Source: Chthonomonadales bacterium
GTDB lineage: Bacteria; Armatimonadota; Chthonomonadetes; Chthonomonadales; CAJBBX01
DNA length: 54,332 nucleotides
Direction of reading: 5' to 3'
NCBI GenBank assembly: GCA_046715155.1
Contig: JBKJZI010000236.1
Span: 1-54,332, forward strand
The translations under genes were made by a program, and so were the position numbers. Shown one piece after another: positions 28,573 through 43,848 of this stretch (position 1 is its first letter; the number at the start of each line of letters is the position of its first letter). The notes under the pieces are model-generated. The model saw only the letters and a list, made by a program, of their open reading frames with translations, had not been told where the DNA came from and searched no databases.

Positions 28573-28577
28573 CCCCT

Positions 28578-31205
28578 ATGCGCCGTTTAGCCTACGCCGT
28601 TCTCGCCGTCGCCCTCGCGTTCGTCCCGCTCCGCCTGTTATCTTCACAGCAGCCCGCAACCGGAGGGGTTTTTACGGACCGGAGCGGCGCTAAACACGCG
28701 TGGAACATTAACTCATCCCACGCGCTGACGTGGGACCGAGAACCCTATATCCCTGTGGGTGGGGTCTTCTGTCCGCGTTACCTGGCCGAGGGCCAGACGG
28801 AATCAAACTGGGCCGCCGACGCGAAGGCGCTGGATTCCCTCAAAGCGAAGGGAATGCAGGACATCCTTATAAACCCCGTGGTCTCTGCCGCTGAGATTCC
28901 GGCCGCCGCGTGGCAGAAACTGATCGACTACCTGGACGCGAACGGATTCCGGTATGGGATTTCATTCGGCCTGGGAATCCGCGCTCCTCTGACAGGGACG
29001 CTTATCAAGCCACAGAGCTACCGCCAGCCCAACATTCGAGAAGGCGCGGAGATCAACTGGAAGGTCTCCGACGCGGATTCCGCCCGCTTTGTAATTGCCG
29101 ATGGGGAAGGGACCGTCCACGACTCGCGCGATATCCAATTCACCAGCGGAAAGGCGACCTTCGTCCCCGACACGAGCGTACTTCCCGGCTCGGTTGCGCT
29201 GCTGTTTCCGCGAAAGACGCTGAAGCCCCACGCGGATGGTTGGCTGCCGGACGTCTGGTCGGATTACGATTCGTATCGCGACCGATTGCTTCGAAGCCTC
29301 GGCGCAGTAAAGTTCGGGCCAGGTCTGCGATTTTTCCTTGACCCGCTGGCGCATCCGTTGCGAATCAGCCTGGAGGCGGACGACCTGGTGCCTGACTCCG
29401 CGGGATTCCGTCTCGAGTGGGAGGCGTACCTGTCGCGGAAATACCGAAGCGCGGACGAGCTGCTGGCGAGCTGGGCGATCCTGGATCGCGAGGTGGATAC
29501 GTACGCCCATGCTGCCGCGCTTGTCCCACTCTGGTCTCGCGGCCGAGGAGTGCCGTACATGCTCGATCCGATCAAGAACCGGCTGATCGAGATGGACCGG
29601 AACTCCGCCGATCAGTCCCGTTTCTGGCAAGATCTCCGACTGTGCCGCCATGAGTCGCTGGCGTACTACATGAACAATGCGGCCGATCTGTTGAAGCGCC
29701 ATATCGCGGACGTTCCGGTCATCTACACCTATACGGATCAGCACCGGATGTTCACCAACTTCCAGCCGGCAGGCGGATTCGACGGTATCGGAATTGCGGC
29801 GTATGGGCGCGGTACTGCCCTTGTCAGCGGCGGCGCGAGCGCCGCCTACTCGCAAGCGAATGAGAGCAAGCGGCCGTCTTGGCTGATAGTGACCGAAATG
29901 CTGGACGGGCCGATCCAATCAAAATTGACGCCCGGATACGAATCCGAACAGGGAATGACGCGCGACCTGGACTGGCTGCGCGGAATCGGCGCCAAAGGGT
30001 TCTTCGTCAACGGGTTTCAGCTTTTGCCCGACGCATCTGCCGCCAACGCGCAGCTCCTCAAAGCCCCCGAGCAGATCGACTGGCTGAAGCGATACGCCGA
30101 CCGCGTGCAGCGCGAGAACGTGGCGCACAATCGGCCGGTCACTCTCCCCTATCCGGCATGCGCTGCGGGGCTGGTAAGCGAAGGACCCATCGGAAGTGGA
30201 AGTGTGTGGTGGGTGCCGTCCCTTTCCGCCGGAAGATCGCTCGAATTCGGGACGTCCTACGCGGGTTACGTCATTGCGATGCCGGAGGGAGATACCACAG
30301 TCCTCTGGTCCCTCGCCGGCCCGCGCGAGACGCGTCTGTACGTCGCCGATCCTCGTACGGTCCAGGTCATGACCGCGGATTTAAAACCCCTATTGACAAA
30401 GGCGAACCTGAAGAAGCGCACCGTAACCGTGGTCATAGATAAGAATCCGGTGGTGATCCGGGGAGCTGGGGAAAACTTTCTACCGCTCGAAGCGGTCGAG
30501 GATTCGCTGCAACAGCTTTACGCGCTGCTGCAAGAAGCGGAAGCCGGCAAGATCCCGGTGCACGAAGCGCGCAACTCATTCGAGAGCGCGCTGCGATCCA
30601 TGAACAACAACCAGCCGCTAATGGCTTTCACCGCCGCGGTGGACGGTCTGAATAAGGCCGGGGCCGCGCTTCAGCCCTATACCTGGATCGAGGCGGAATC
30701 CGCCCAGAACCACAGCTTCAGCGAGGCCAACCACGATGCGGCAGCGTCCGGCGGGGGATTCCTGGCGCTCAACACCGAAACGAATCCGCCCGCCGCCGGC
30801 TACTCCGCGCAGTTCCAGTTCTCGGTGCCGCGGGAAGACGTCTATATGGTTTGGGCAGCCGCAACGCCTCCCGGCACGGAATCATCGCCGTTCTACTGGA
30901 CCATCGATTCCGACGATCCGCAGACCAGCGCTCAGGCGGTACCGATAGGCGGCACGTACTTGCACGACCGGCTGATCTGGCTTCGCCTGGGACGCACGCG
31001 GCTTAAAAAGGGCGACCATACGCTCACCCTGCGCGTGACAGACCGGGCCGCTCCAGAGGGCCGATTCCACCTGGCCCTCGATTCCATCATGGTAACGCGT
31101 TACCCATTCACCCCCTCGGGAATTACAAAACCTCCCCTCGCGCTACTCACCGGCAAGCCGATTCCGCTAACCGACATGTCCAAACGCGCGCGTCCCTCCA
31201 AGTAG
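28578..31205 (+). CDS. large exported hypothetical protein, possibly glycoside-hydrolase-like with a C-terminal carbohydrate-binding-type domain
   Basis: Signal peptide MRRLAYAVLAVALAFVPLRL. 875 aa. C-terminal WIEAESAQNHSF...AAASGGGFLALN resembles CBM-type sugar-binding modules. The family assignment is weak. Confidence 0.8.
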   Translation: MRRLAYAVLAVALAFVPLRLLSSQQPATGGVFTDRSGAKHAWNINSSHALTWDREPYIPVGGVFCPRYLAEGQTESNWAADAKALDSLKAKGMQDILINPVVSAAEIPAAAWQKLIDYLDANGFRYGISFGLGIRAPLTGTLIKPQSYRQPNIREGAEINWKVSDADSARFVIADGEGTVHDSRDIQFTSGKATFVPDTSVLPGSVALLFPRKTLKPHADGWLPDVWSDYDSYRDRLLRSLGAVKFGPGLRFFLDPLAHPLRISLEADDLVPDSAGFRLEWEAYLSRKYRSADELLASWAILDREVDTYAHAAALVPLWSRGRGVPYMLDPIKNRLIEMDRNSADQSRFWQDLRLCRHESLAYYMNNAADLLKRHIADVPVIYTYTDQHRMFTNFQPAGGFDGIGIAAYGRGTALVSGGASAAYSQANESKRPSWLIVTEMLDGPIQSKLTPGYESEQGMTRDLDWLRGIGAKGFFVNGFQLLPDASAANAQLLKAPEQIDWLKRYADRVQRENVAHNRPVTLPYPACAAGLVSEGPIGSGSVWWVPSLSAGRSLEFGTSYAGYVIAMPEGDTTVLWSLAGPRETRLYVADPRTVQVMTADLKPLLTKANLKKRTVTVVIDKNPVVIRGAGENFLPLEAVEDSLQQLYALLQEAEAGKIPVHEARNSFESALRSMNNNQPLMAFTAAVDGLNKAGAALQPYTWIEAESAQNHSFSEANHDAAASGGGFLALNTETNPPAAGYSAQFQFSVPREDVYMVWAAATPPGTESSPFYWTIDSDDPQTSAQAVPIGGTYLHDRLIWLRLGRTRLKKGDHTLTLRVTDRAAPEGRFHLALDSIMVTRYPFTPSGITKPPLALLTGKPIPLTDMSKRARPSK

Positions 31206-31331
31206 GGGCGAGTCCCTTGCGGCCGCCACCGGCTTGTCACCGGACTGGCAATCGTAGGGGCGGCCCTGTGTGGCCGCCCTTATCCTGTGTAAACTGACAC
31301 GCGAGGCAGGCCACACAGGGCCGCCCCTACG
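31202..31331. repeat. REP/REPIN-like element: GTAG-headed GC-rich palindromes in inverted orientation between convergent genes
   Basis: cGTAGGGGCGGCCctgtgtGGCC (31253-31275) is the exact reverse complement of GGCCacacagGGCCGCCCCTACg (31309-31331). The left copy also folds on itself (GGGCGGCC-ctgtgt-GGCCGCCC). A degenerate third copy, GTAGGGGCGagtcccttgcGGCCGCC, lies at 31202-31227. Confidence 0.8.
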
Positions 31332-31338
31332 AATACCG

Positions 31339-32493
31339 TTATACGACGCCCTTCCGCAATTCATTGAGCGGGTAGAGGGTGCCGCGCCAGAGGACCCCGC
31401 CCTGCCGGTAGGTGATCCACATCGACTTCAGCATCGTATAGAGAATAAGGATTCCAGCCAACGGATATCCCAGGCCGATAAGTGGTGATATTCCCATCGT
31501 AAGGCCGGGCGCGGCTGCGGCGGCGGCCATCATCAGCCATGTGGCGCAGCAGATAAGGCGCGGTCCGATCGGCCCTGCGAACGCTCCGATCGCCGGCCAG
31601 ACGGCGAAGAAGAATAGCATCGCACACGAAACAACCACTCGGTCCGGGCGGAATCCGAGACCGGCGAACATGTTCTTCGTTAGCCCGTTTATGGCCCCGC
31701 CGAGGCCAGAAATCCAACGGACCTTGACCATCTCGCGGGATGCGATCACGTCGCACCGGGCGCCACTGCGTTTGAAGAGCTTGCCGAGCTTGACGTCGTC
31801 CGCCACTTCCAGCGGGAGCGCGGCGTGGCCGCCCATTTTTCGATAGGCTTCCGTCCTTACGAGGTTGAAGGCGCCCACCCCAATATACGCGGAACTCATC
31901 GGATTTCGGACGTCCCATGGACGGAATCGAGCGCTGAAGATAACTCCGAAGAAGCTGACAAATAGCGTTTCCCAGAATCCGCGCAGCAAGACCCGTGGAA
32001 AAAGGGCTAGATGGTCCAGGTTTCGGTCCACCGCGAATCCGACCGCACGTCGAAGCGCTCCCGGGTCAAAATGGACGTCGGCATCAGTGAACAGAATCCA
32101 TGGGGTCTTGGCGAGAGACGCGCCGGTCCAGAGCGCGTGATTCTTTCCAAGCCAGCCTGGTGGCAGCTCTGTCACGTGGATGACGGTCAGCCGGTCCGCG
32201 GCCGTGGCAAGTTCATCGAGAGTCCGCCCTGTCCCGTCAGTCGAACGATCGTCGACCGCTATGACGGTGAGCTCGGGGTAATCGCTTGCAAGTAAGGATC
32301 GCATGGCCGGATCTATCGTTTCCTCCTCGTTGAGGGCCGGAACGATAACGGCGAGCGCGGGAAGACTCCCATCCGTCGCTGGTGGGATGCTTTCAAGCGC
32401 CAACTCGCTGCGGAAGTATCGGTGGAAGAGGAACGTGAGTCCCGTCCAAGCACTGAGTGAGAAGAGGGCGGCGACCCACCAGGCGAGAGTCAT
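31339..32493 (-). CDS. family 2 glycosyltransferase, integral membrane
   Basis: LAVIVPALNEEETI...VIAVDDRSTDGT...GWLGKNHAL...FTDADV (GT-A DxD region), followed by several C-terminal TM helices. Confidence 0.85.
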   Translation of the reverse strand: MTLAWWVAALFSLSAWTGLTFLFHRYFRSELALESIPPATDGSLPALAVIVPALNEEETIDPAMRSLLASDYPELTVIAVDDRSTDGTGRTLDELATAADRLTVIHVTELPPGWLGKNHALWTGASLAKTPWILFTDADVHFDPGALRRAVGFAVDRNLDHLALFPRVLLRGFWETLFVSFFGVIFSARFRPWDVRNPMSSAYIGVGAFNLVRTEAYRKMGGHAALPLEVADDVKLGKLFKRSGARCDVIASREMVKVRWISGLGGAINGLTKNMFAGLGFRPDRVVVSCAMLFFFAVWPAIGAFAGPIGPRLICCATWLMMAAAAAAPGLTMGISPLIGLGYPLAGILILYTMLKSMWITYRQGGVLWRGTLYPLNELRKGVV

Positions 32494-32504
32494 TGGCCAG
32501 CGAG

Positions 32505-35500
32505 TCAGGCGACCAACTGTTCCAGGGGCTCCGTGTCGTCACAGTGAAGGGCGAGTGCGACGGCGCGGTCCAACGACAATGCTGCGCCCGCGGCCCACGC
32601 TGCCGCGAAGTCCTCCTCCCGCAGCTCCGCCTTCATCGCGCGGATGTCCAACTCACGGAGGCTCCGCGCACGCTCACCCAATGGAATCCCGAGCTTGGCT
32701 TGGGCGGATTCCGCCGCCGCCATGAGCTTCGCCGCGGTGTACGGCTGGGACTCGCAGCGGGCCACGTTTCCCAGACTCGCGATGGTCTCCGCCATACCGG
32801 CTTTGTCGCCCAGGTCGCGATTCATGTGAAGGCTTTGCTCGAAATGCTCCCTGGCGCGGCGAAGGTCCCCCTGGCGCAATCTCACTTCGCCGATATTGTG
32901 ATGGAGTAAGGCTTCGCCCCAACGGTTTCCCAGCTCTCTGAATAGGTCGAGGCTGTGCTGGTAACAGACGTACGCAGGGCGGAACTTGAGCTGCTCGAAT
33001 GCGGCGCTGCCTTCGTTGTTGAGGACTATCGCCGCCTGCGACCGGTCGCCGAGCTGCTCGAATAGCTGGCGGCTCCGGCGATAGTAGTCGATGGCAGTAA
33101 GGTGGTCATCCTGGTCCTGAGAGATACGGCCGAGGTTGTTCAGGCAGGCTGCTTCCCCCCATCGATCTCCCATCTTCTTACGAAGGTCCAGGCAGAGCTC
33201 GTAGTTCTCCCGCGCCGTTCGGCTATCGCCGCGATCACCCGCCAATACGCCGAGATTATTGTAAGCCTCCGCCTTAGCAGATGCGTCACGGAATCGCTTC
33301 GCGAGGTTCAGACTGCTTGTCAAGGCGGATTCCGCGCACTTCTGATCTCCCAAATGATAGGCCAGCACGCCCAGTCCGTTGAGCGCTCTGGCTCGCGTGA
33401 TTGTTGGCTCCTGGGAACCGGCAAGGGCGACTTCGAGCCACTGACGGCCTTCACCGACGTAACCGCGCACGAACCAGAAACGCCAAAGTGCGGCCGCCAG
33501 TCGCAGACCGATCTCGTCGTTTGTAAACCGTGACAGCGCTGCTCGGAAGTTGTCGTGTTCCATCTCGATGCGGGTGTACGCCGAAGTCGAATCCGCGCTT
33601 CGGAATGACGACTCAGCCGATTCCGCTATCTGAAGAAAATGCTCGGCATGAAGACGATAAAGCGACCTGCGATCGGCTTCATCCAGCATTTCGTCCGTAT
33701 ACTCCCGAAGTGTTTCGAGAATGCGGAAGCGCATATCGTCTTCAGCGAGAAGCTCGGTAACAATGAGCGAGCGCTGCACCAGCGCGTCAACGAGCTCGAA
33801 GGCGTCCGGTATCCCGCACACCTGCTGCGCCTGCTCCAGGGTCCATGTCCCGCGAAAGACCGAGAGTTGTGAATAGAACCGAGCCATGTCCGCCGGCAAG
33901 AGGTCGTAACTCCAGGCAATCGCTGATCTTATGGATTGGTGTCGGGGTTCTACGTTCTTCTTGCGACTCACCAGGAAACTCAGCCGCCGCCCCAACTGGC
34001 TGAGCATTTGCGTTGGGCTGATCGATTGCGCCCTGGCTGCGGCCAGCTCGATAGCCAGAGGGACTCCTTCGAGCTTTTCACATATCGCGGCGACGACCGG
34101 CGCATTGCGCGACGTGATTTGAAAGTCCGGGCTTACGGCCTGCGCGCGGTCGACGAACATCTGTACGCACGCAAACTCCATCAGCCGGTCCGGCGTGCCG
34201 GGTCGAGACGGTATGGGAAGGGGCCTGAGGGGAATGACGACTTCGCCTTGCAGATCGAGCGGTTGGCGAGAAGTGATAAGGCAGGTAAGCGTTGGCGCCT
34301 TCTGGAGTAAACCCCAGACCCACTCGGCCGCCTCTGGCTCGAGGTGCTCGAAGTTGTCGAACACGACAAGCGCTGGAGCGCCCGCCAGCGCGTTGACGGT
34401 CATCAGCTCTAAGTCTCCGACGGGTGAACGCGGAACGCCTAGCGCATTTGCGAGCGCGTCAGGAAGGGAGCGCGCGTCATGGAGATCCGCCAGCGGGACG
34501 AAATAGACCCGCTGGGCATAATCGGCGGAGATACGGTGGGAGAGCTCCAGGGCCAGCCTGGTTTTCCCCGCGCCGCCAGGGCCCGCAAGCGTCACCAGCC
34601 GCTCGGCTCCTTGCTGGAGGGCTTCCAGAAGGCGCTGCAGTTCAACCTCACGGCCAAAGAATCGTGTGAGAACCAGGGGCAGGCGTACGGGTTCGGGTGA
34701 TTTCGATGCCTGCTCCGGTTTCGGCAAATCCTCAGCCGGCGTGCTCGCGACAACGCTGCCGGGTGGTCGAGTCGCGCGGTAAGCTGGATCCCGCCGCACG
34801 AGGATTCCGGTTTGCAGCCGAATCAGCTTCGTTAGCTCGACTATCTCCGGACTGGGGCGTAGGCCGAGATCGCGACGGAGAATGCGGGACAGTCGGCGAT
34901 ACTGCTCCTGCGCGTCATGCGGCCGGCCGAGCTTCAGGTATAGCCGCATGAGATCATAGTGCGCTTCCTCGGAGTCATGCGCAGCGGAGATGGCCCGCAG
35001 TCCAAAGTCGAGGGCATCCTGGTAGGAGCCTCGTTCCTCGAGGTGCAATACGATCTGCCTGAGGGCCTGAAGATGCATCACCAGAAGTCGCTCGCGCGAG
35101 ACGAGCACCCAGTCGTCGTAGCAGCCCGGAAGGAATCCGCCATGATACATCTCGACTGCCCGAAGATGAAGTTGGAGTTTTTCGTCGGGATCGTCCGTCG
35201 ACTTAGCGCTCTCGATGAGGCTCAGAAACTCAGCGACATCGGTCGTGATGCTAGAAGGGTTAAGGCGGGCGAAACGCCGAGGAGCAATGAGGAAAGTCGA
35301 TAGGGGAACTCCCGGGGGTTCTAGCTGCTTGCGAAGCGATGTCAGCGCCTGGCTGAGGCTCTGGCTGCCGCGATCCCATTCGGAATCGGGCCAGAATAAC
35401 TCCATAAGCTCATCGCGGGAGTGGTCTTCCCTCAGGTTGTAGGCGAGATAGGCGAGGAGGAGACCGGTCTTGCGCGTCTGGAAGCGAACGATCTCGCGCC

Positions 35501-35555
35501 CATCGCTAATCGCCCTTAAGCCTCCAAAAAACTCGATTCTCCACGGCGTAATCAT
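32505..35555 (-). CDS. BTAD/SARP-type transcriptional regulator with NB-ARC-like ATPase and TPR domains
   Basis: The N-terminal winged-helix plus BTAD region has LLAYLAYNL and YHGGFLPG. Walker A is LAGPGGAGKTRLALE. The C-terminal ~400 aa are TPR repeats. The start is set at ATG 35555 (MITPWRIEFFGGLRAI); the ORF is open to 35780. Confidence 0.85.
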   Translation of the reverse strand: MITPWRIEFFGGLRAISDGREIVRFQTRKTGLLLAYLAYNLREDHSRDELMELFWPDSEWDRGSQSLSQALTSLRKQLEPPGVPLSTFLIAPRRFARLNPSSITTDVAEFLSLIESAKSTDDPDEKLQLHLRAVEMYHGGFLPGCYDDWVLVSRERLLVMHLQALRQIVLHLEERGSYQDALDFGLRAISAAHDSEEAHYDLMRLYLKLGRPHDAQEQYRRLSRILRRDLGLRPSPEIVELTKLIRLQTGILVRRDPAYRATRPPGSVVASTPAEDLPKPEQASKSPEPVRLPLVLTRFFGREVELQRLLEALQQGAERLVTLAGPGGAGKTRLALELSHRISADYAQRVYFVPLADLHDARSLPDALANALGVPRSPVGDLELMTVNALAGAPALVVFDNFEHLEPEAAEWVWGLLQKAPTLTCLITSRQPLDLQGEVVIPLRPLPIPSRPGTPDRLMEFACVQMFVDRAQAVSPDFQITSRNAPVVAAICEKLEGVPLAIELAAARAQSISPTQMLSQLGRRLSFLVSRKKNVEPRHQSIRSAIAWSYDLLPADMARFYSQLSVFRGTWTLEQAQQVCGIPDAFELVDALVQRSLIVTELLAEDDMRFRILETLREYTDEMLDEADRRSLYRLHAEHFLQIAESAESSFRSADSTSAYTRIEMEHDNFRAALSRFTNDEIGLRLAAALWRFWFVRGYVGEGRQWLEVALAGSQEPTITRARALNGLGVLAYHLGDQKCAESALTSSLNLAKRFRDASAKAEAYNNLGVLAGDRGDSRTARENYELCLDLRKKMGDRWGEAACLNNLGRISQDQDDHLTAIDYYRRSRQLFEQLGDRSQAAIVLNNEGSAAFEQLKFRPAYVCYQHSLDLFRELGNRWGEALLHHNIGEVRLRQGDLRRAREHFEQSLHMNRDLGDKAGMAETIASLGNVARCESQPYTAAKLMAAAESAQAKLGIPLGERARSLRELDIRAMKAELREEDFAAAWAAGAALSLDRAVALALHCDDTEPLEQLVA

Positions 35556-35840
35556 CGTGCCGGAGTCCCTCAACAGAAGAAACGCGCGGATCTCAGGTCC
35601 ATCCAGACCCACGGCATGAGGACGCACGCTCATCGATAACATTCTCGATACGTCACGTTCACGGTAGGCTGGATCAATTCCTCTGAATTCGCAAGATTCC
35701 GTCACGCCTCGGTCTGTCCCGGCTTCTTGTGAAGCGCCCCCAATGAAGTGTGGCGAACTGAATGATCGAGTAGACGGCATCTCCGCTTCGGCGTGCCGGC
35801 CCCTGAGCTACCTCGAGGGTAACCGGCGGATTCCGGTAGG

Positions 35841-36431
35841 TCAGACGCTCCGGCGCTTCGGAGTTGGGATGGCCGCTCTCTCGCCAGCCGGAGGTTGGGA
35901 GGAGGGAGCCTTACGCATGGCGTGGGTCCGCAGCGTCCGGAAAACCAGGTCGGCGAGTGGAAAAACGACGTTGAGGTTAGTGCCGTGGTTCTTGTGATGG
36001 AGCCGATGGTGCTCGTTCAGGAACCTGAAGAGACGGGTCCGCTCGATCCAGCGATCACGCGGTACGTGCATAACGTAGTGCATGCCTTCGTAGCAGCAGT
36101 AGTAGAAGGTGATGGAGGCCATCGCTCCCCAGAGGCTTGGGATTCCGGTCAGCTTCTGGGCGAGCCAGGCGAAGGGAAAGTGGAATCCGAGGAAGAGCGG
36201 GAGGGCGAACCAGTCCATCATGATATGGTGGCCGTGCGGGTCGTCTTCGCTCGGCAGATCGTAGCTATCGTCGCCCCGGTACATGCCGTGGTGCGTGAGC
36301 GCATGCGCCTTGTAGGTGGCCGGAATCAACTTCGGGCTATGGAACAGATGCTTATGAAACACCCACTCAAAAAAGCTCCCATAGACGAACCACGCGACGA
36401 ACGCACCGGCCTGATACAGAACAAAAGTCAT
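35841..36431 (-). CDS. fatty-acid hydroxylase/sterol-desaturase superfamily membrane protein
   Basis: His boxes HKHLFH, HALTHHGMY and HHRLHH. ATG 36431 follows GGGAGAAG. Confidence 0.8.
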   Translation of the reverse strand: MTFVLYQAGAFVAWFVYGSFFEWVFHKHLFHSPKLIPATYKAHALTHHGMYRGDDSYDLPSEDDPHGHHIMMDWFALPLFLGFHFPFAWLAQKLTGIPSLWGAMASITFYYCCYEGMHYVMHVPRDRWIERTRLFRFLNEHHRLHHKNHGTNLNVVFPLADLVFRTLRTHAMRKAPSSQPPAGERAAIPTPKRRSV

Positions 36432-36597
36432 GCTCGATCTTCTCCCTACTTCGCATCGTTCCTCAACCCGAGTTCGGCACGCCGCAAAAAAGCCCCGGCG
36501 CGTTGCGCGGTAAACGTGCGCGCATCGACAGCTTGAGGCTCTCACTTAGTGCGCGGCTGATGTGCGTGGCGCAGCCTGACGCCGCCGCTAGTATACC

Positions 36598-37728
36598 TTA
36601 ACCGATATCCCGGCCCTGCCCGCCGTCACCGATTGCCGCCGGTTCTTTGAGAAGCTCCCGCGCGCGCTGACGGAGCCGATCCAAGGGCTGATATTCAATG
36701 CCTGTTTCGGGGCGGGCCATCCATGCAGTCCAGCCATTGCAGCCCGCAGCGCCCAGAAGATGGGCGCCAACGAAATGGATACTCCCGCGTGCGCCGTTAG
36801 AAGATATAGTGCCGTCAGCGTGGATCAATCCGAATAGTGGTCCGCTGCCAAGACGCAGCCGGTCCCCTTCCCTTACGAGACCCAATTCCAACAGGACGGA
36901 GAAAGCGACACGCTCCGGCTGAGGCGGAGGCGGCGCTAGGGATTCATCCGGCGCGGGCGTCACGGATTCGATCCTCATGCGGCCAGCGTCAACATAAGCG
37001 TCCTCGCGTTCGATTCCGATAAACCGGCGGCCCAGCCGCTTTGCGACCGACGCCGTGGTGCCCGCTCCTAAGAAAGGGTCCAGAACGGTATCGCCAGGAT
37101 TTGTGCAGCTTCGGATGATGCGATGCAAAAGGGCTTCCGGCTTCTGGGTGGTGTGGACTTTACCGTTCGCGTCGCGGAGTCGCTCTCTCCCCTGGCAGAT
37201 CGGCAGATACCAATCGCTGCGCGCCTGCAGATCTTCGTTGCCGGCCTTGAGCGACCCGTAATGAAATGTATAGCGCTTCTGTTCCGCCGACTTCTTCGCC
37301 CAAATCAGAGTTTCGTGCGCGTTGCAGAATCGGACCCCGCGGAACTGCGGCATGGGATTGGATTTGACCCAGCAGATGTCGTTGAGAATCCAATATCCGA
37401 GGTCCTGAAGGATGGAGCCGACTCGGAAGATGTTATGGTAGGTGCCGATAACCCAAATAGTCCCCGTGTCTTTCAACACGCGGCGGCATGCCAGGAGCCA
37501 CTCTCGGGTGAACCTATCGTAGGCTTCAAAGCTCATGAACTGGTCCCAACCGTCATTCACCGCATCAACGCGCGACATATCGGGCCGGTAGAGCTCTTTG
37601 CGAAGCTGAAGGTTATACGGAGGGTCCGCAAAGACGAGGTCCGCGCACTGCTCAGGGAGCGACTGCATAACCTGAATGCAGTCGCCCTGGATGATGTCAC
37701 CGCCGTCCATTTCGATCTTCACGTTCAC
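36598..37728 (-). CDS. ccrM: CcrM-type beta-class N6-adenine DNA methyltransferase (predicted GANTC specificity); no adjacent endonuclease
   Basis: LVFADPPYNLQL (motif IV DPPY), VLDPFLGAGTTASVAKRLGRRFIGIERE (motif I). There are long collinear blocks I recall from Caulobacter CcrM: DAVNDGWDQF, YDRFTREWL, RRVLKDTGTIWVIGTYHNIFRVG, NPMPQFRGVRFCNAHETLIWA, KRYTFHY, TQKPEALL. The CcrM-specific C-terminal domain is also present (GSIHFVGA...CNGWTAW). Confidence 0.9.
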   Translation of the reverse strand: MNVKIEMDGGDIIQGDCIQVMQSLPEQCADLVFADPPYNLQLRKELYRPDMSRVDAVNDGWDQFMSFEAYDRFTREWLLACRRVLKDTGTIWVIGTYHNIFRVGSILQDLGYWILNDICWVKSNPMPQFRGVRFCNAHETLIWAKKSAEQKRYTFHYGSLKAGNEDLQARSDWYLPICQGRERLRDANGKVHTTQKPEALLHRIIRSCTNPGDTVLDPFLGAGTTASVAKRLGRRFIGIEREDAYVDAGRMRIESVTPAPDESLAPPPPQPERVAFSVLLELGLVREGDRLRLGSGPLFGLIHADGTISSNGARGSIHFVGAHLLGAAGCNGWTAWMARPETGIEYQPLDRLRQRARELLKEPAAIGDGGQGRDIG

Positions 37729-37744
37729 GACCCCCGGTCGTTTA

Positions 37745-37803
37745 GTAATTAACTAATCAGTCAACAGTAATGGCCCTTACTGATCACTGTTTACTGATTA
37801 CTG
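37745..37803. repeat. imperfect hairpin of ACTGATN heptamers between ccrM start and fmt stop
   Basis: cagtcaacagtaa (37758-37770), loop tggccc, ttactgatcactg (37777-37789): 11 of 13 bp. The right arm continues as actgatc-actgttt-actgatt-actg and overlaps the fmt stop codon. Confidence 0.7.
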
Positions 37804-38738
37804 CTTTCCGTCTCAAATCGGTCACCCGGTGAAATGCGAGCCCCGCGAGCCCACTCTGCGCCGGACATTCGGCGGCTGTTTTCGGGCTGCACTTCCAATA
37901 GATCAACAGCGCCATTCCCGGTTCCTACGGTCACGGAATCGCGGCTGCTGGAAACGACGGTTCCAGGCTCTTTCTCCGGAAGGGGAGATACCGCTACCGA
38001 CCACAACTTGATCCTGCGCCCGCGGAAGTAGGCGAAGATGCCCGGCCGAGGTGAGAGCGCCCGCACCCGGTTGCGAATTCTCGTCGCGGGCTCGTTCCAT
38101 CGGACAGCAGTGTCTTCAGGTGTGATAGCAGGGGCGTGTGTTGCGAGCGCGTCGTCTTGCGGAATCCGCGCGATAGTCCCTTCCTGAATCTGCCTAAACG
38201 TCTCCAGAAGCAGCTCGGCGCCTGCGGCGGCCATCCTGGGGACGAGCGTGCCGGTTGTATCCTCCGGATCGATCGGAACTTCCAGTTTGAGCAGAATATC
38301 TCCGGTATCCAGAGTTGCGTCCATCCACATGGTGGTTACGCCCGTTACGGTCTCGCCGTTCAAGATAGCGTATTGTATCGGAGCAGCTCCCCTATATGCC
38401 GGAAGCAATGACCCGTGCACGTTGATAGGGCCCTTCGGCGGTAGATCCAGCAGCGCCTGCGGAATGATCTGCCCAAACGCCGCGAGCGCCAGCGCCTCCG
38501 GATTCATCTCCCTCGCCTGTAAGATGAACGATTCCGCTCGCACCCGCTTCGGCTGCAGGACGGGCAGACCCAACCGGAGAGCCGCGTGTTTGACCGGTGA
38601 GAACGCCACCTTTAAACCTCGTCCTTGCGGCCTGTCCGGCTGAGTAACGACCGCCAAAACTTCATGTCGGCCGGATTCCGCCAGCGCCTCTAAGGAAAGC
38701 ACCGCGAACTCAGCCGTCCCGAAGAAAAGCACGCGCAT
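37791..38738 (-). CDS. fmt: methionyl-tRNA formyltransferase
   Basis: MRVLFFGTAEFAV..., VVTQPDRPQGRG, HGSLLPAYRGAAPIQYAILNGE, TGVTTMWMDATLDTGDIL. Confidence 0.93.
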   Translation of the reverse strand: MRVLFFGTAEFAVLSLEALAESGRHEVLAVVTQPDRPQGRGLKVAFSPVKHAALRLGLPVLQPKRVRAESFILQAREMNPEALALAAFGQIIPQALLDLPPKGPINVHGSLLPAYRGAAPIQYAILNGETVTGVTTMWMDATLDTGDILLKLEVPIDPEDTTGTLVPRMAAAGAELLLETFRQIQEGTIARIPQDDALATHAPAITPEDTAVRWNEPATRIRNRVRALSPRPGIFAYFRGRRIKLWSVAVSPLPEKEPGTVVSSSRDSVTVGTGNGAVDLLEVQPENSRRMSGAEWARGARISPGDRFETESSNQ

Positions 38739-38739
38739 T

Positions 38740-38767
38740 GAGAATTAGCCGCAAATGAACGCGAATG
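38740..38767. repeat. left arm of a 27/28-nt inverted repeat bracketing the GxxExxY insert
   Basis: gagaatTAGCCGCAAATGAACGCGAATG is the reverse complement of 39154-39180, apart from one extra T. Confidence 0.9.
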
Positions 38768-38780
38768 GACGGGAATGGAT

Positions 38781-39166
38781 TCAAAAGTCAAGAACGATTC
38801 GTTTCCATTCCATGCGTGGGTGCTGAAAGTTTATTAGGAGGGCGATCTTGATGTTGGTCGCCCGAAGGTAATTTAGGCATTGAGCCATGTGTTCATCACT
38901 GAAGCATTCAACACACTTTAGCTCAATGACCAGGCAGCCCTCGATTAGAATGTCGGCGAAATACTCACCGACGAGTTCCCCCTTATACAGGACAGGGACC
39001 GGAACCTGGGACTCGGCCCTGATCCCAATTGAACGAAGTTCCTGAATAAGCGCCCGCTCATCACTTTCTCAAGAAATGCGGCGCCCAGCACATTGGAAAC
39101 CTCATAGGCGGCTCCAATTACCCGGCGAACCAGGTCGTTCAAGTATTCGCGTTCATTCGCGTTCAT
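38781..39166 (-). pseudogene. GxxExxY-family (PD-(D/E)xK-like) protein gene, interrupted by a 1-nt frameshift near 39060-39064
   Basis: Frame 1: MNANEREYLNDLVRRVIGAAYEVSNVLGAAFLEKV. After the frame shift (one base missing, near 39060-39064): ERALIQELRSIGIRAESQVPVPVLYKGELVGEYFADILIEGCLVIELKCVECFSDEHMAQCLNYLRATNIKIALLINFQHPRMEWKRIVLDF*. Restoring one base (..EKV-Y-ERAL..) gives a complete 128-aa family member. Confidence 0.8.
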
Positions 39167-39180
39167 TTGCGGCTATTCTC
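39154..39180. repeat. right arm of the inverted repeat bracketing the GxxExxY insert; overlaps the def stop and the GxxExxY start
   Basis: CATTCGCGTTCATTTGCGGCTAttctc. It contains the tandem decamer (TCGCGTTCAT)x2 that encodes the MNANERE N-terminus on the minus strand. Confidence 0.9.
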
Positions 39181-39745
39181 GCATCTCCGGATCGTCTTCT
39201 TCATCCAGCTCCGATTCGACGAGCCAGTGAAGGGTCTCGCGCTCGGCTCGCTGGAAGAAGAGGATTCCGTCCAGGTGGTCGATTTCGTGCTGGATAACGC
39301 GCGCTTCGAGCTCACGGGCGCGGCGGCGGAACGGCCGGCCGAGAAGGTCCATGCCTTTGACGATAACTTCATTGGCGCGTTTGACCTCGCCCTGCAGGCG
39401 CGGAATAGAGAGGCAGCCCTCCGTTCCGATCTGTTCTCCTTTCAAGGAGACGATCTTCGGATTCACCACCACTCGCACCGGTTCATCCTCCTCCGGAAGC
39501 CTGTAAATGATTACGCGCTCCGAGACCCCGATCTGAGGGGCGGCGAGTCCGATGCCGCGCCAGTCGGCCATCGCCTGTTTCATCCGGTCGACGAGCTGAC
39601 GCGTTGCAGCAGTCGGCTTAACGACCGCAGTTGACGGCCGTTCCAACACCGGATCCGGATACTTGACGATGGGGCCGTCCAACTCATCCCACAGCGCCCG
39701 GATATCGGGCGGAATCTCGAGTTGGAACTCTTTGTCGATCAGCAT
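39173..39745 (-). CDS. def: peptide deformylase
   Basis: GIGLAAPQIG, EGCLSIP, HEIDHLDG (the three PDF motifs). Confidence 0.93.
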   Translation of the reverse strand: MLIDKEFQLEIPPDIRALWDELDGPIVKYPDPVLERPSTAVVKPTAATRQLVDRMKQAMADWRGIGLAAPQIGVSERVIIYRLPEEDEPVRVVVNPKIVSLKGEQIGTEGCLSIPRLQGEVKRANEVIVKGMDLLGRPFRRRARELEARVIQHEIDHLDGILFFQRAERETLHWLVESELDEEDDPEMRE

Positions 39746-39810
39746 GGGGAGTTTCTACCGGCAGTCTCTCCCGTCAGTATACCTTGACGCGAGTCCACGT
39801 GTTTGTGAGA

Positions 39811-39883
39811 GTGTGGAGTGATGGAAGCGTTGGCGTATTGGAGTGATGGGTCGCAATACTCCATCACTCCCTTACTCCATACC
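39811..39883. repeat. hairpin of GGAGTGAT-type octamers between the kinase-like gene stop and the def start
   Basis: The core is a perfect 10-bp stem, GGAGTGATGG (39840-39849) / CCATCACTCC (39861-39870). The flanks repeat ggagtgatgg / ctccat units. Confidence 0.75.
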
Positions 39884-39888
39884 ACTTG

Positions 39889-40821
39889 TCATCGCGGCTG
39901 GATTCGCAACAGGTCCATCTGGGACAGGGAATAATCGGCGAGAGTGTGGCGTTTCTGCGCATGATACCGGCCGAATTCCGCGGCGGAAACCATGCCGGTG
40001 CGCACTTCGAGAGGGGCGCGCTGCTGCTCCAAATCCGAGATGGCTTCCGCCGCAGTCTCGTAACGATAGCTTGGCGACTTGGCGAGCATCTTCGCCAGGA
40101 CGTCTCGAACGAAGGGCGGCTGATTCAGCAAGGGCGCCGGGATACTGGAGCGTACTTTTGCGACGACCTCGTGGCCGGTCTCACCGGTGAATGGGGCCTT
40201 GGCGCTCAGCAATTCATACATGACTGCGCCCATCCCGTATACGTCTGAGCGAAGGTCACCTTCGAATCCTGCAAGCTGCTCGGGCGAAACGTATGGCGAG
40301 CCGGTCTTGTCGCGCGTGTGGCCCAGGCCAAAATTGATCACCCTCACGCTGCCGTTAGGCGTCAGCAAGATATTGTATGGCGTGATATCGGTGTGGCACT
40401 GGCCGTTGGCGGCCGCGTAGTCCACTGCGTCCGCCACCTGGCGGAAGACTTCAATGGCAAATGCCAGCGGCTGCGGCCCGTCGTTGTCGATGATGCTGCG
40501 GATGGTGCGGCCGTCGAAGTATTCGGTGGCGACATAGAAAAGCGCGCCTTGCTCTCCGAAGGCAAAGATCTTCTGTATGGCCGCATGAGAATCCACGCGC
40601 TCGTGAGCGGCGAGGAGCTCCCTGAAACGGTCAACGGCCTGCGTCCATTGTTCCTCGTCCGCGCCGGCGGGCCGGGCGAATCCACGGAAGACCGCAATCC
40701 GGCCCGTGGCTATTTCGCGGGCTCGATAGACTTTTCCCAGGGGGCCGCGTCCGAGCTCGCCATGAATCTCATATCCGGCGATGACGGGCAGTCCCTGGCT
40801 GGCTACGGATTCCGCGGGCAT
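39889..40821 (-). CDS. Hanks-type Ser/Thr kinase-fold protein lacking key catalytic residues (probable pseudokinase)
   Basis: G-loop GELGRGPLGKVY. VAIK is replaced by IAVFR (no beta3 Lys). HRD becomes HTDITPYN. DFG becomes INFG. APE-like SPYVSPEQ is retained. Confidence 0.8.
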   Translation of the reverse strand: MPAESVASQGLPVIAGYEIHGELGRGPLGKVYRAREIATGRIAVFRGFARPAGADEEQWTQAVDRFRELLAAHERVDSHAAIQKIFAFGEQGALFYVATEYFDGRTIRSIIDNDGPQPLAFAIEVFRQVADAVDYAAANGQCHTDITPYNILLTPNGSVRVINFGLGHTRDKTGSPYVSPEQLAGFEGDLRSDVYGMGAVMYELLSAKAPFTGETGHEVVAKVRSSIPAPLLNQPPFVRDVLAKMLAKSPSYRYETAAEAISDLEQQRAPLEVRTGMVSAAEFGRYHAQKRHTLADYSLSQMDLLRIQPR

Positions 40822-40918
40822 GGCTCTCCTGGTAGGGAAGGGTTACGAGGTTGTTTTCGTTCGCTTGCGCGCCGTGATAATATCACGCACACGGCGGCTT
40901 GGTCAACGCGCGGGGCCT

Positions 40919-40988
40919 CGTGAGTGGTGAGCCAGTGATTGAGAGTAAGTTGTCCGTAGTTCACTCACTCACTCAACCGCTCACACAC
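40919..40988. repeat. imperfect hairpin of GTGAGTG / TCACTCAC units in a divergent intergenic region
   Basis: Left arm cgtgagtggtgagccagtgattgagagtaag, loop ttgtccgtagt, right arm tcactcactcactcaaccgctcacacac. Confidence 0.6.
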
Positions 40989-41028
40989 AACATGGAACAA
41001 CTTTTCATTCCACCCTGGAGAAACTGTT

Positions 41029-41460
41029 ATGAGGCACACGGTCCTGCTGGCTTTTGCGCTGCTGGTTGTTATCACCTCGGCGAGCGCGATCGCTCCGCGG
41101 AAGCGGTATGTTCGGCGGTCTTCGGCCGCCGGCCTAACGCGGTCTCTTTTGGCGCAGAGCAGCCGGTACCTGGCTGGAGTTCGAGCGGAGTGGAAACGCC
41201 AGCCGGTGCGGGTAGGGGGCGGCTTCAAGCGGTACGCGCCGTTCACCGTCGTCTCTACCGCAGCCGACGTTGAAAAGTCTGATTCCGCGTCCGCGCCATT
41301 CCGTGGGCATCTGACTATCAAGGTGAAGTACCGCGAGACGGCATTGCATGAGAATCCCCGTGAAGCGCTGCGCGCTCCGCTGCGCGCCGAGCGGGAGTTC
41401 GCTTTCGAGCCGGCTTTCGCATTCCGTCACGGCAAGTGGGTGGCGGCGTCGGAAGAATGA
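41029..41460 (+). CDS. hypothetical exported protein
   Basis: RBS GGAGAA. Signal peptide MRHTVLLAFALLVVITSASA. 143 aa. Confidence 0.65.
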   Translation: MRHTVLLAFALLVVITSASAIAPRKRYVRRSSAAGLTRSLLAQSSRYLAGVRAEWKRQPVRVGGGFKRYAPFTVVSTAADVEKSDSASAPFRGHLTIKVKYRETALHENPREALRAPLRAEREFAFEPAFAFRHGKWVAASEE

Positions 41461-41544
41461 GTGTGGAAGTGTGGAGGTGTGGAAGTGTGGAAGATTCTGG
41501 GGTCGTGTCTTGCATACCTCCACACTTCCACACTTCCACTCTTC
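41461..41544. repeat. hairpin of GTGTGGAA octamers immediately after a stop codon
   Basis: Left arm (gtgtggaa/gtgtggag)x4 at 41461-41493. Right arm cctccacacttccacacttccactcttc at 41517-41544. One register gives a perfect 15-bp pairing, 41479-41493 with 41525-41539. Confidence 0.85.
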
Positions 41545-41591
41545 GAATCGGCTGGATCCTAAAAAATTAGCGCAAATTTGTCCCCCGGCCG

Positions 41592-41620
41592 TTGACAATC
41601 GTCGATATACTCCATATAAT
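41592..41620 (+). promoter_or_regulatory. perfect consensus sigma70-type promoter, TTGACA-17 nt-TATAAT
   Basis: TTGACA at 41592-41597, a 17-nt spacer, TATAAT at 41615-41620. An A/T-rich tract (taaaaaattagcgcaaatttg, 41560-41580) lies upstream. The next ATG with an RBS is 41660. Confidence 0.7.
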
Positions 41621-41659
41621 GGAGGAAATGTAGAAGATTGTACACTGGAAAGGACGGCA

Positions 41660-42229
41660 ATGGAACATTCGCAACCATTCTCGGACGAGCAGCTTGCCCT
41701 GGAGCGCGTGGCCGACCGCATCCTGGAGACCTTCCCTTCGGACCCCGACCGTCCCGCCTATACCGAGCGGCAGTTGGCCCGCCACGGCAAACACCTTGTT
41801 GTTGTGAGCATCTACAGCCTGTCCGAAAGGATGGTGGCTGAGCCCCAGGAGTTCCGCGACGAGCTGCGATTCCTCATGTCCGTCACCCGGTTACGGCCGG
41901 AGCAGCGGCGCTGCCTTCGATTGTGGGTGGATGGCTGGAGCCAGTGGGAAATAGCCACGGCCTACGGCGTTCCGCAGCAAACAATCTCTTACCGAATCCG
42001 CCGCGCACTACGCGCTTGCTATGATTCCGCCCCCCTATCCTTCCGCCGCTTCAGCTATCACAGCATCTATCGTAAGCCTCGCAATGGCCGCGACTTCACT
42101 ATTCTGCGCAAGTGCACACACTGCGAGGACGCGTATTCCCTGGGAGTCGGGTTGGGGCGCTACTGCTCTCTCCGCTGCCGGGAGGCCGCCCGCCATTCCA
42201 GCGCGGAAAAAATCGCAGCTCCATATTGA
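41660..42229 (+). CDS. sigma-70 region-4-like HTH protein with C-terminal zinc-ribbon
   Basis: ATG 41660 follows GGAAAGGA. LRPEQRRCLRLWVDGWSQWEIATAYGVPQQTISYRIRRALRA (r4/LuxR-type HTH). C-terminal CTHCEDAY...YCSLRCREAA. Confidence 0.7.
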   Translation: MEHSQPFSDEQLALERVADRILETFPSDPDRPAYTERQLARHGKHLVVVSIYSLSERMVAEPQEFRDELRFLMSVTRLRPEQRRCLRLWVDGWSQWEIATAYGVPQQTISYRIRRALRACYDSAPLSFRRFSYHSIYRKPRNGRDFTILRKCTHCEDAYSLGVGLGRYCSLRCREAARHSSAEKIAAPY

Positions 42230-42860
42230 CTCTCGCGACGAAAAGTGGGAATATGGTCACGTCGCACGTTCGCCGGTGGCCAGAAACTCTCAGCAACGCC
42301 GCCGGCACTTGCTGCCGAACAAGGAGGGCCTACGGTTTTGATACCGCCGGACAGTCTAACGGAAAGCAGCCGGGAGAGGGCCTGACCCTGACTGAACGTC
42401 GCCGAGCTACCGCCACCGTCCCACGGGACAGCGACGGCTCCGACGAGACTCCAGGCGCAGAGAACGCGCACGAAAAGGGCGGCTCTCTCCCGGTTTCCCG
42501 TTTGCACCCCCTCCTCTTCGCAATCACCTCGGAACCATTTCGCAATCCAGCCTTCGCCTGACCCGGATTACCCTCAATTCTGTCGGAACTACCATTCGCC
42601 GGATTATCGGATTTCACGGACTTCGACCCCCTACCAGAGGGATGAATATCCGGCGACTGAACTGCCCTGTCCCGCCCAGGCCCCTCAAAAACCTCAAAAA
42701 CCGCCCCGAACGGCCAAAAAACCCCAAAAAACTTCAAGAAAAGTAGCGCGTGAACCGAAAACGGCTTAATCTTGAAGTTCCCTTGAAGTTCCACTCTCTA
42801 TAATGGCTCATGCAGCATAACGAATATCGTTTGCTCGCATCCCATAGGGAGGGAAACTGA

Positions 42861-43298
42861 ATGAACCGCACCACCGGCAGCACCGTATCCAGCCCAACGT
42901 TCCGCTCTCGCTTCGCCCGCATCGTCACGGCGTTCTACCTGCTCACCGTGTCCACCGCGGCGCTTGCCGTGGTGGTGACCATCCCGATCCACATCTCGAC
43001 GCCGTCCTCCGTAACCGGCGGGAACAACTTCACGACGACTGTAGGCACGGGATCCGCAATTTCACAGAACGGAGCGGTACTGGTCAGCACCACGCGCCCG
43101 GACATCCTTACCTCGCCGACTGCGAGCTGGCCCTACACCCTGACCATCCCGGCAAACACGACGAGCGGCGCATTCTCGGTCAGCGCATCCAGCGTCAGCT
43201 CCTCGCAGAACGCCACGATCGTCACCTGCGCAACCAACGAAGACATCTCGAATCCGAACAACTGGCGCGCAACCTTCAGCGTGACCGTCAATCCGTAG
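42861..43298 (+). CDS. hypothetical membrane-anchored Ser/Thr-rich protein
   Basis: RBS GGGAGGGA. TM helix IVTAFYLLTVSTAALAVVVTI. 145 aa. Confidence 0.65.
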   Translation: MNRTTGSTVSSPTFRSRFARIVTAFYLLTVSTAALAVVVTIPIHISTPSSVTGGNNFTTTVGTGSAISQNGAVLVSTTRPDILTSPTASWPYTLTIPANTTSGAFSVSASSVSSSQNATIVTCATNEDISNPNNWRATFSVTVNP

Positions 43299-43330
43299 TC
43301 GCCTTTCGGCCGGAATGAGGCTCGGCAGAA

Positions 43331-43396
43331 CTGGAGTAATGGAGCATTGGAGTAATGGGCCCAACTCACTCCAACACTCCATCACTCCATCACTCC
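43331..43396. repeat. hairpin of TGGAGTAA / CACTCCAT octamers after a stop codon
   Basis: Left arm ctggagtaatggagcattggagtaatgg, loop gcccaact, right arm cactccaacactccatcactccatcactcc. Same unit family as 39811-39883. Confidence 0.8.
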
Positions 43397-43456
43397 GTTG
43401 CCCTCCTCCGGCCGGACCCGACGGTGCCTGGGCCGGCGACAGACCCACGGCACCCC

Positions 43457-43488
43457 GCGGGCGGGCGGACTGGGAGACGCCCGCCCGC
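43457..43488. other. GC-only 11-bp hairpin
   Basis: gcgggcgggcg-gactgggaga-cgcccgcccgc. No T-tract follows. Confidence 0.5.
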
Positions 43489-43707
43489 ACTTACAGATCG
43501 AGGACAATCGGCTTCGTATGGCGGCGCCTTGGATCATAAATCTGCCCCGCTATAGTTGAATGAGTCCCGAATCTTGCGCCCGGCTCGCATCATCTGTTCA
43601 TATACTCTCCCGACCTGCGGAACAACTATACTTGGAATGGAACCGGTGACCGCGGATTCCGTCGCGTCTTGAAGCTGGATCCTGTTCTGATACGGCCGTG
43701 GATTCCG

Positions 43708-43736
43708 TTGCAAAGCTCAGCCCGGTATGGTAAGAT
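43708..43736 (+). promoter_or_regulatory. candidate promoter of tRNA-Ser
   Basis: TTGCAA (43708-43713), a 17-nt spacer, TAAGAT (43731-43736). The tRNA 5' end is at 43750. Confidence 0.5.
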
Positions 43737-43749
43737 AGCGCGTTGTCGC

Positions 43750-43838: not shown

Positions 43839-43848
43839 CCGGGAAACA

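Follow-up and report, generated by a model that had tools for sequence, protein, structure and literature searches.

A CcrM-family adenine methyltransferase and a hyperabundant GAWTC word in an uncultured Armatimonadota lineage

Described CcrM enzymes and iterated palindromes

CcrM is the textbook cell-cycle epigenetic methylase, and its target is used sparingly, as a switch. To our knowledge, this target is depleted in every host that has been studied. Here, we describe a ccrM-like gene on contig JBKJZI010000236.1 of a Chthonomonadales bacterium from soil, whose genome is known here from a stretch of 54,332 nt (1..54332), called the window below. The encoded protein is a structural member of the CcrM family with a non-canonical central-base pocket, and it is found in a genomic regime like that of the cyanobacterial highly iterated palindrome HIP1 rather than that of Caulobacter. 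The gene and the word GAWTC (W, A or T) on which this comparison turns are as follows.

36598..37728, minus strand: ccrM-like gene, an orphan beta-class N6-adenine DNA methyltransferase (open reading frame, Pfam, 6pbd, NCBIfam, PADLOC)
1..54332, unstranded: 348 dispersed GAWTC sites, including 39 copies of CGGAWTCCG (counts, shuffles)

The closest described enzymes are CcrM of Caulobacter crescentus (M.CcrMI) and the other alphaproteobacterial CcrMs, which have the same two-domain architecture and ~56-62% full-length identity to the window protein. They share with it the DPPY motif, the strand-separating loops 2B and 45, the G1, A2, T4 and C5 contacts, the dimer interface, and the C-terminal domain, and they are likewise orphans that are inherited vertically within their clade. 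In contrast to the Caulobacter gene, the window gene belongs to Armatimonadota, lies in a def-fmt gene string, and is not under known CtrA/GcrA control. In the canonical CcrM system, this control confines expression to part of the cell cycle, and the enzyme is turned over by Lon. The target of alphaproteobacterial CcrM is under-represented in the genome as a whole and relatively frequent between genes (PMC3973325), whereas GAWTC is 4.5-fold enriched in the window, at the same density in coding and non-coding DNA, and only GASTC (S, C or G) is mildly depleted. CcrM-like proteins with the C-terminal domain occur sporadically outside Alphaproteobacteria, in Helicobacter and some Chloroflexi (PMC3973325), and GANTC methylation has been reported in the Armatimonadota class Fimbriimonadia (2026 preprint).

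Some CcrM homologues of SAR11 and marine Rhizobiales (M.PspCM15mP30I, M.RspCM15mP111I, and others) have been determined by experiment to be GAWTC-specific, and the position equivalent to Gly40 of CcrM is Lys or Asp in all of them (PMC8919816, Hiraoka et al. 2022). GAWTC and GASTC behave differently in their genomes, as they do here. However, GAWTC is strongly depleted in those genomes (log2 observed-to-expected ratio ~-1.7; PMC8919816) and is the most enriched word in the window. In addition, these homologues branch within the alphaproteobacterial CcrMs, whereas the window protein, whose specificity is predicted, falls in an Armatimonadota clade. M.HinfI and M.TfiI are likewise beta-class DPPY enzymes for GANTC or GAWTC; unlike them, the window gene has no adjacent endonuclease and has the CcrM C-terminal domain, housekeeping synteny, and an enriched target.

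On the side of the word, the nearest precedent is HIP1 (GCGATCGC) with the alternate HIPs of cyanobacteria, which are likewise short palindromes that are hyperabundant in all frames and in non-coding DNA (PMC4390886, PMC5861425). A conserved orphan methylase recognises the HIP core, and deviations concentrate at the outer positions (Elhai 2015, PMC4390886). In the window, one-nucleotide deviations also concentrate outside the GAWTC core, and the word shares with HIP1 a patchy distribution among related lineages. The two differ in that the HIP1 methylases are Dam-like and 5-methylcytosine enzymes, whereas the window methylase is a CcrM-type N6-methyladenine enzyme from another phylum. Moreover, the unit of the window is a 5-bp core at the much higher density of 6.4 per kb, with a longer palindrome that is lineage-specific. 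Quasi-periodic spacing and positional conservation have been reported for HIP1; in the window, spacing is Poisson and conservation is 41% versus 26%. The literature searched yielded no report of CcrM in Armatimonadota, no GAWTC-rich genome, no CcrM-family host with an enriched rather than depleted target, no HIP-like word outside cyanobacteria on a CcrM-type enzyme, and no conserved def-fmt-ccrM arrangement.

GAWTC in the window and among relatives

GAWTC occurs 348 times in the window versus 78 expected from base composition, an observed-to-expected ratio (O/E) of 4.45. In dinucleotide-preserving shuffles the expectation is 163.6±12.5, and 0 of 100 shuffles reached the observed count. The density corresponds to one site per ~156 bp, and GAATC and GATTC rank first and second of the 1024 5-mers by O/E. 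GASTC is mildly depleted (92 versus 127.6±10.8). For GANTC as a whole, 440 copies were counted, versus 195 from base composition and 313±16 from a first-order Markov model, and the first 1.2 kb alone hold 11 GANTC versus 4.3 expected from base composition. A first-pass annotation of this DNA, made from the letters only, had called GAWTC strongly enriched and its excess inverse to the depletion in Alphaproteobacteria. Both statements are borne out, by the counts given here and by comparison with published genomes (PMC3973325, PMC8919816). Its idea of an iterated word also held, as GAWTC is the core of a frame-independent, DNA-level word that extends to CGGAWTCCG. Mismatch-repair strand discrimination and self/non-self labelling, which it also put forward, are candidate roles.

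Within coding sequences, 296 GAWTC sites are found versus 121.6±9.9 after synonymous-codon shuffling (2.4-fold, z ~17) and 91.7±8.6 after codon-order shuffling (3.2-fold). The three reading frames carry near-equal shares, and there are 6.4 sites per kb of coding DNA compared with 6.2 per kb of non-coding DNA. The use of Gly GGA in these coding sequences rises from 20% to 73% ahead of ATC or TTC, and ahead of TCN, the use of GAA for Glu climbs from 41% to 79% and that of GAT for Asp from 35% to 78%. With a G on the 5' side and a C on the 3' side, AAT accounts for 61% of Asn codons instead of 28%, and ATT for 63% of Ile codons instead of 22%. Because the use of all five codons rises where the word is formed, it can be concluded that GAWTC overrides local codon preference.

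The flanks of GAWTC are biased in this genome, which gives the full word CGGAWTCCG. Its 39 copies (0.72 per kb) compare with 1.67±1.23 expected, and they are found in genes, between genes, and in every frame. Changes at the two outer positions keep a 7-17-fold enrichment, changes to the G, the A, or the central W of the core leave 1.6-6-fold, and CGGASTCCG has 0-1 copies in the window. The core GAWTC carries the signal of the longer palindrome, and this core coincides with the specificity predicted for the methylase.

GAWTC spacing in the window is Poisson, with a coefficient of variation of 1.0, and neither 3-nt (codon) nor helical periodicity was found. A repeat element or miniature inverted-repeat transposable element was considered as the source of the word and was ruled out by the Poisson spacing, the occurrence in all frames, and the lack of any shared motif longer than 9 nt. 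The longest GAWTC-free stretch, 42023-43250 (1.2 kb), lies in a poorly coding region (41100-43840). This region holds a sigma-70 region-4 helix-turn-helix gene (41348-42229) and lies directly upstream of the only tRNA, tRNA-Ser(GCT) at 43750-43840. The stretch may be left over from DNA that was integrated recently and still lacks the usual density of the word, although the gap by itself is only marginally significant.

To place the window among its relatives, ~65 loci of at least 5 kb with a CcrM homologue were compared, taken from a genome scan, a metagenome scan, and contig look-ups. A genome-contig scan with the single protein, through very specific peptides, gave 11 loci, and the metagenome scan gave at least 80, the loci listed being a sample. 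The five highest GAWTC O/E values in this sample are those of L017 (5.53), the window (4.45), L012 (4.11), L018 (3.74), and L013 (2.95). All five are def-fmt-ccrM loci, and GAATC and GATTC rank 1-10 of 1024 in each of them. Two short contigs are intermediate, L101 at 2.23 and L102 at 2.57, the latter with only 8 sites. Other CcrM carriers sampled have an O/E of 1.9 or less, mostly below 1 in line with what Alphaproteobacteria show, and none of the ~55 CcrM-bearing loci outside the def-fmt-ccrM clade exceeds 1.9. L103, with 69% fmt identity and an fmt that has no def or ccrM beside it, is not enriched (1.14); its lack of ccrM is known for the vicinity of fmt only.

In L017 and L018, the bare GAWTC core is enriched without conserved flanks. 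Their excess is also independent of frame, with 91 sites versus 24.5±4.3 after synonymous shuffling in L017 and 58 versus 21.0±3.7 in L018. No other 5-mer sets the enriched relatives apart from the non-enriched ones as well as GAWTC does (3.1-fold), and relatives of the same G+C content have no GAWTC excess. The enriched loci make up two of the four def-fmt-ccrM subclades on both the CcrM and the fmt trees, and the history of enrichment is either one gain with two losses or two gains.

Nearly all sampled CcrM carriers are depleted in GASTC (O/E 0.0-0.7), usually more than in GAWTC, and GASTC is low in GAWTC-rich lineages too (for example, L018 0.35 and L017 0.55). A difference in behaviour between the two halves of GANTC extends far outside SAR11. 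In view of this widespread GASTC depletion, a C-to-T change in the middle of a site held open by the enzyme (GASTC to GAWTC) was considered as a source of the word. It was ruled out, because the GASTC deficit of ~30 sites falls far short of the GAWTC excess of ~185.

The fate of single sites was followed between the window and L012, two genomes only, in a syntenic alignment of 12.3 kb with 75% nucleotide identity. The numbers of GAWTC sites are equal (70 versus 72), and 29 of the 70 (41%) are at the same position in L012, a modest rise over the baseline of 25.6% for 5-mers in general. Single sites come and go at a constant density. Taken at face value, these rough numbers mean that sites decay at ~0.65 of the average rate, which would alone give a ~1.5-fold enrichment. 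Therefore, most of the 4.5-fold excess would be due to sites being created at an elevated rate, or to selection that acts on their density and not on individual positions. Where a site is not conserved, the alternate states are distributed over every position of the core.

The methylase, its gene string, and its lineage

In the open reading frame list of the window, the ccrM-like frame starts with GTG and encodes 376 amino acids. Its main parts are as follows.

36985..37641, minus strand: catalytic methyltransferase domain, aa 30-248 (PF01555)
37615..37626, minus strand: DPPY, aa 35-38 (read directly in the sequence)
37597..37602, minus strand: codons for Arg43-Lys44, at the Gly39-Gly40 central-base pocket of CcrM (alignment)
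36658..36939, minus strand: CcrM-type non-specific DNA-binding domain (RAMA), aa 264-357 (PF18755 and 6pbd alignment)

The Pfam families are N6_N4_Mtase (PF01555, E 1.5e-63) and, at the C-terminus, RAMA (PF18755, E 4.6e-10). DPPY (motif IV) stands N-terminal to TQKP (aa 194-197) and to the S-adenosylmethionine-binding FLGAG (aa 219-223). Residues 11-357 align end to end with residues 15-362 of the Caulobacter CcrM chain in 6pbd (446 bits, E 9.5e-133), across both domains, including the DPPY, TQKPEALL, and FxGxG blocks and, in the C-terminal part, GSIH and CNGW. The collinearity with CcrM and the C-terminal domain of ~90 aa that had been noted in the first-pass annotation are both confirmed by this alignment and by PF18755. 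The NCBIfam CcrM model NF050803 matches with 519.8 bits over 345 of 350 positions, below its equivalog cut-off of 830 bits, and the best PADLOC model is 'orphan methyltransferase' (514.7 bits). By these sequence matches, the window protein is a member of the CcrM family and not an NCBI equivalog, and it appears to be an active, stand-alone N6-adenine methyltransferase.

The residues by which CcrM reads each base have been listed from its DNA complex (PMC6787082, Horton et al. 2019), and they were mapped onto the window protein by alignment. Of 29 functional residues, 27 are unchanged, and Lys126, which is Arg here, is a main-chain contact. The identical residues include the G1 reader Arg44 with the intercalating Pro45, the A2 contacts (Asp31, Pro32, Pro33, Tyr34, Thr191, and Lys193), and the T4 contacts (Phe63, Tyr93, His94, and Arg129). 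The G1:C1 and C5 contacts of loop 45 (Met122, Pro123, and Phe125), the dimer residues Asp113, Phe130, and His134, and the phosphate contacts Arg179 and Lys187 are identical as well. The sole true difference is at Gly39-Gly40, which in CcrM give the flexibility that tolerates any central base (PMC6787082) and which are Arg43-Lys44 in the window protein.

Recognition of GA-x-TC by the window enzyme can be predicted securely. Because the central-base glycines of CcrM are replaced by Arg-Lys, the preferred site is probably GAWTC, and a preference for W over plain GANTC is plausible but unproven. The enzyme had been taken for a GANTC methyltransferase. Its assignment to the CcrM family stood, and the specificity is likelier to be GAWTC, or GANTC with a preference for W, given the altered pocket and the enrichment of W-centred sites only. 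The pocket position is variable across the Armatimonadota clade, with R or K followed by N, Q, G, H, or K. Six alignment columns, residue 44 among them, split the enriched from the non-enriched enzymes of the def-fmt clade. At this residue, K, N, or G goes with enriched lineages and Q with non-enriched ones, and the intermediate L101 has Q. As a predictor of enrichment, residue 44 was ruled out by L101 and by the non-enriched Chthonomonadales-type enzymes, which also have Lys.

The gene lies in a housekeeping string, with the following neighbours.

39173..39745, minus strand: def (peptide deformylase), first gene of the def-fmt-ccrM string (Pfam, NCBIfam, synteny)
37791..38738, minus strand: fmt (methionyl-tRNA formyltransferase), immediately upstream of ccrM (TIGR00460, 292 bits; Pfam)
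37729..37790, minus strand: AT-rich spacer of 62 nt from the fmt stop to the ccrM start, with the inverted repeat CAGTAA...TTACTG and a TTGACT hexamer
35841..36545, minus strand: histidine-box membrane protein (fatty-acid hydroxylase superfamily), downstream (the L012 orthologue matches PF04116 FA_hydroxylase)

The window copy of the histidine-box protein, which is not an endonuclease, has no match of its own in Pfam or PADLOC. Further neighbours include a Ser/Thr kinase and a large BTAD/AAA/TPR regulator. Pfam scans of ~45 open reading frames of the window found no endonuclease, HinfI-like or other, and no second methylase, Vsr, MutH, GcrA-like, or CtrA-like protein. The def-fmt-ccrM order is kept in at least eight soil and other metagenome contigs with 61-83% CcrM identity, none of which has an endonuclease. 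These are L012 (83%), L013 (71%), L014 (66%), L018 (64%), L099 and L100 (both 63%), L017 (61%), and, as the eighth, the P0006 contig. Across the window and these eight loci, the neighbours are def, fmt, clpS, or a fatty-acid-hydroxylase-like protein, which locally bears out the earlier description of an orphan gene between fmt and a fatty-acid hydroxylase. clpS frequently comes next after def-fmt-ccrM in the relatives.

No terminator-like site was found on the minus strand from def to the genes downstream of ccrM, and the gene arrangement suggests that ccrM is probably co-expressed with def and fmt. In the relatives, fmt and ccrM often overlap by 1-4 nt. The spacer of the window may hold an internal promoter or operator for ccrM that was possibly gained in this lineage.

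The named relatives of the methylase, at ~58-62% identity, are from Chthonomonadaceae, Armatimonadia, and Fimbriimonadales metagenome-assembled genomes, and alphaproteobacterial CcrMs score about level with them. The top genome match is a Chthonomonadaceae chromosome, and the named relatives of fmt (60-66% identity) are likewise Chthonomonadaceae. These matches place the host in an uncultured Armatimonadota lineage close to Chthonomonadales and agree with the first impression that it is not alphaproteobacterial. In a neighbour-joining tree of the methylase, the def-fmt-linked clade is sister to a Chthonomonadales clade, and Armatimonadia, Fimbriimonadales, and alphaproteobacterial sequences branch successively outside the two. 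An fmt tree from the same contigs recovers the same subclades. Since the two trees agree, ccrM looks to have been inherited vertically together with fmt, with no recent acquisition.

The window also encodes a pseudopilin-type protein (25895-26719, plus strand) with an N-terminal methylation motif and DUF1559. This is the pseudopilin mentioned in the first-pass annotation, and it agrees with a lineage that is Armatimonadota or Planctomycetota-like. Pseudopilins with DUF1559 are widespread in Armatimonadota and neighbouring phyla, and such a protein is by itself no evidence of competence.

Proposed relation of the enzyme to the word, and other features of the window

A causal link between the methylase and the word, in the manner of HIP1, is the reading that we consider likeliest, at about even odds. 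According to the mechanism proposed here, the enzyme would, like Caulobacter CcrM, act as a dimer that opens the site of 5 bp and methylates the adenine of GA-x-TC in each strand, and it would in this way mark GAWTC across the chromosome. A second, lineage-restricted factor would sense the mark or the enzyme-bound site and bias repair, recombination, or selection so that GAWTC sites keep arising. The bias could take the form of a repair or recombination ratchet, or of selection for dense methyl marks. A second factor is needed because sister lineages have the same gene without enrichment. A more specific and clearly less certain version is that the methylase is half of a sequence drive that writes its own site. 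Together with a methyl-sensing repair or recombination factor, it would bias mutation or gene conversion toward GAWTC. On that version, which we hold only tentatively, the enriched subclades would have the factor and their sisters would lack it, and the word would have arisen independently of cyanobacteria.

The main competitor holds that the methylase and the word are independent, the former being an ordinary orphan regulatory methylase and the latter a product of mutational or repair bias or of an abundant DNA-binding protein, so that the methylase site would be part of the word by coincidence. We consider this possible, with a chance that is real but well short of even. Several results weigh toward it and against a causal link. 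L014 (O/E 1.45), L100 (1.76), and L099 (0.70) keep an intact ccrM in the def-fmt-ccrM order without GAWTC enrichment, and the Chthonomonadales-type carriers L001 (1.25) and L015 (0.93) lack enrichment although they have Lys at the same pocket position. Therefore, the methylase alone is not sufficient for enrichment. Enriched and non-enriched states are spread over no more than about four subclades, which leaves few independent events to support the phylogenetic correlation. No one-off neighbour word shows the specific depletion that a simple repair ratchet predicts, and only a general deficit of A/T runs was found. Two further results count against the proposed link without bearing on its competitor: the purely Poisson spacing is unlike the quasi-periodicity of HIP1, and a single-residue reversion at the Gly40 equivalent, in one mutagenesis test, did not bring back GANTC specificity (PMC8919816). 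In contrast, a causal link is favoured over independence because what divergent lineages have in common is the enrichment of precisely the 5-bp CcrM-type core, with flanks that differ by lineage, because the restriction to W fits the altered central-base pocket, and because enrichment is seen nowhere outside the def-fmt-ccrM clade among the loci sampled. Independence is also at odds with the HIP precedent, which ties such words to cognate orphan methylases (PMC4390886).

The remaining explanations are less probable still. CGGAWTCCG could be a DNA-uptake or self-recognition signal of the type of the Neisseria DNA uptake sequence (DUS) or the Haemophilus uptake signal sequence (USS), with the methylase marking it or being incidental. 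DUS and USS, which are specific words of about 9-12 nt at roughly 1 per kb kept as long words across related species, have densities similar to the 0.72 per kb of the 9-mer, and the 9-mer is found in genic and intergenic DNA and in every frame. The window contains a type IV pilin-like gene (25895-26719), and HIP1 is linked to transformation in recent preprints. However, the long word is not kept in L017 and L018, which enrich only a 5-bp core that is too short for specific uptake. GAWTC at 6.4 per kb is also far denser than known uptake sequences, and the DUF1559 family of the pilin-like gene carries no evidence of competence, so that an uptake signal appears improbable. It is even less probable that the gene is the methylase half of a HinfI/TfiI-type restriction-modification pair whose endonuclease lies elsewhere. 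Only 54 kb of the genome are visible, and HinfI-type systems use related methylases (PMC3973325), but no endonuclease adjoins the gene in the window or in its eight syntenic relatives, the housekeeping synteny is conserved, the phylogeny matches that of fmt, the CcrM C-terminal domain is present, and the best PADLOC model is for orphan enzymes. Moreover, the target is the most over-represented word in the same DNA in which CAGCTG, an avoided word, has 0 copies. Lastly, the GAWTC excess might be a by-product of amino-acid, codon, or dinucleotide usage, as dinucleotide content alone lifts the expectation from 78 to 164. This compositional artefact was refuted and is given next to no weight: the count is 2.1-fold above dinucleotide-preserving shuffles, it exceeds both the synonymous-codon and the codon-order shuffles, the frames and non-coding DNA have equal density, codon choice is bent toward the word, and relatives of the same G+C content lack the excess.

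The enzyme itself is ordinary, and the interest lies in the inverted relation between enzyme and site and in sister lineages that represent natural on and off states. The purpose of HIPs has been debated for ~30 years. If the causal link holds, GAWTC would add an independent second example to the HIP phenomenon, one that involves an enzyme family whose DNA complex has been solved. Sister lineages of the same gene order with and without the word offer a comparative route to the missing factor, and they could serve as a direct test of whether a methylase makes its own sites accumulate. If the drive version is true, these lineages would be natural on and off states of the drive.

Some other features of the window were recorded. 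Downstream of ccrM, a block is kept in the same order in the window (28132-35780) and in L012 (3830-11090), the relative with 83% CcrM identity. It contains the BTAD/AAA/TPR regulator of 1091 aa, a family-2 glycosyltransferase, an 875-aa protein without a family match, and an ASCH-domain protein. At 1218-2711 (plus strand), a dual-specificity phosphatase-like domain (PTP-SAK / Tc-R-P) is fused to an ADP-ribosylglycohydrolase domain (276 bits), a fusion that recalls polymorphic-toxin or signalling modules.

A 494-aa protein with several helix-turn-helix motifs is encoded at 51966-53450 (plus strand), with an HTH_17 match of 85 bits and others near aa 118, 309, and 414. The last repeat is hit by the mad1 model of PADLOC. 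By its setting alone, this protein is a candidate reader of a short palindrome.

CAGCTG, a PvuII-type site, has 0 copies in the window versus 15-18 expected. It has 0-2 copies in L012, L013, L017, L018, L014, L099, and L100, 10 in L001, and 5 in L103. This pattern looks like classic restriction-target avoidance in the def-fmt-ccrM clade.

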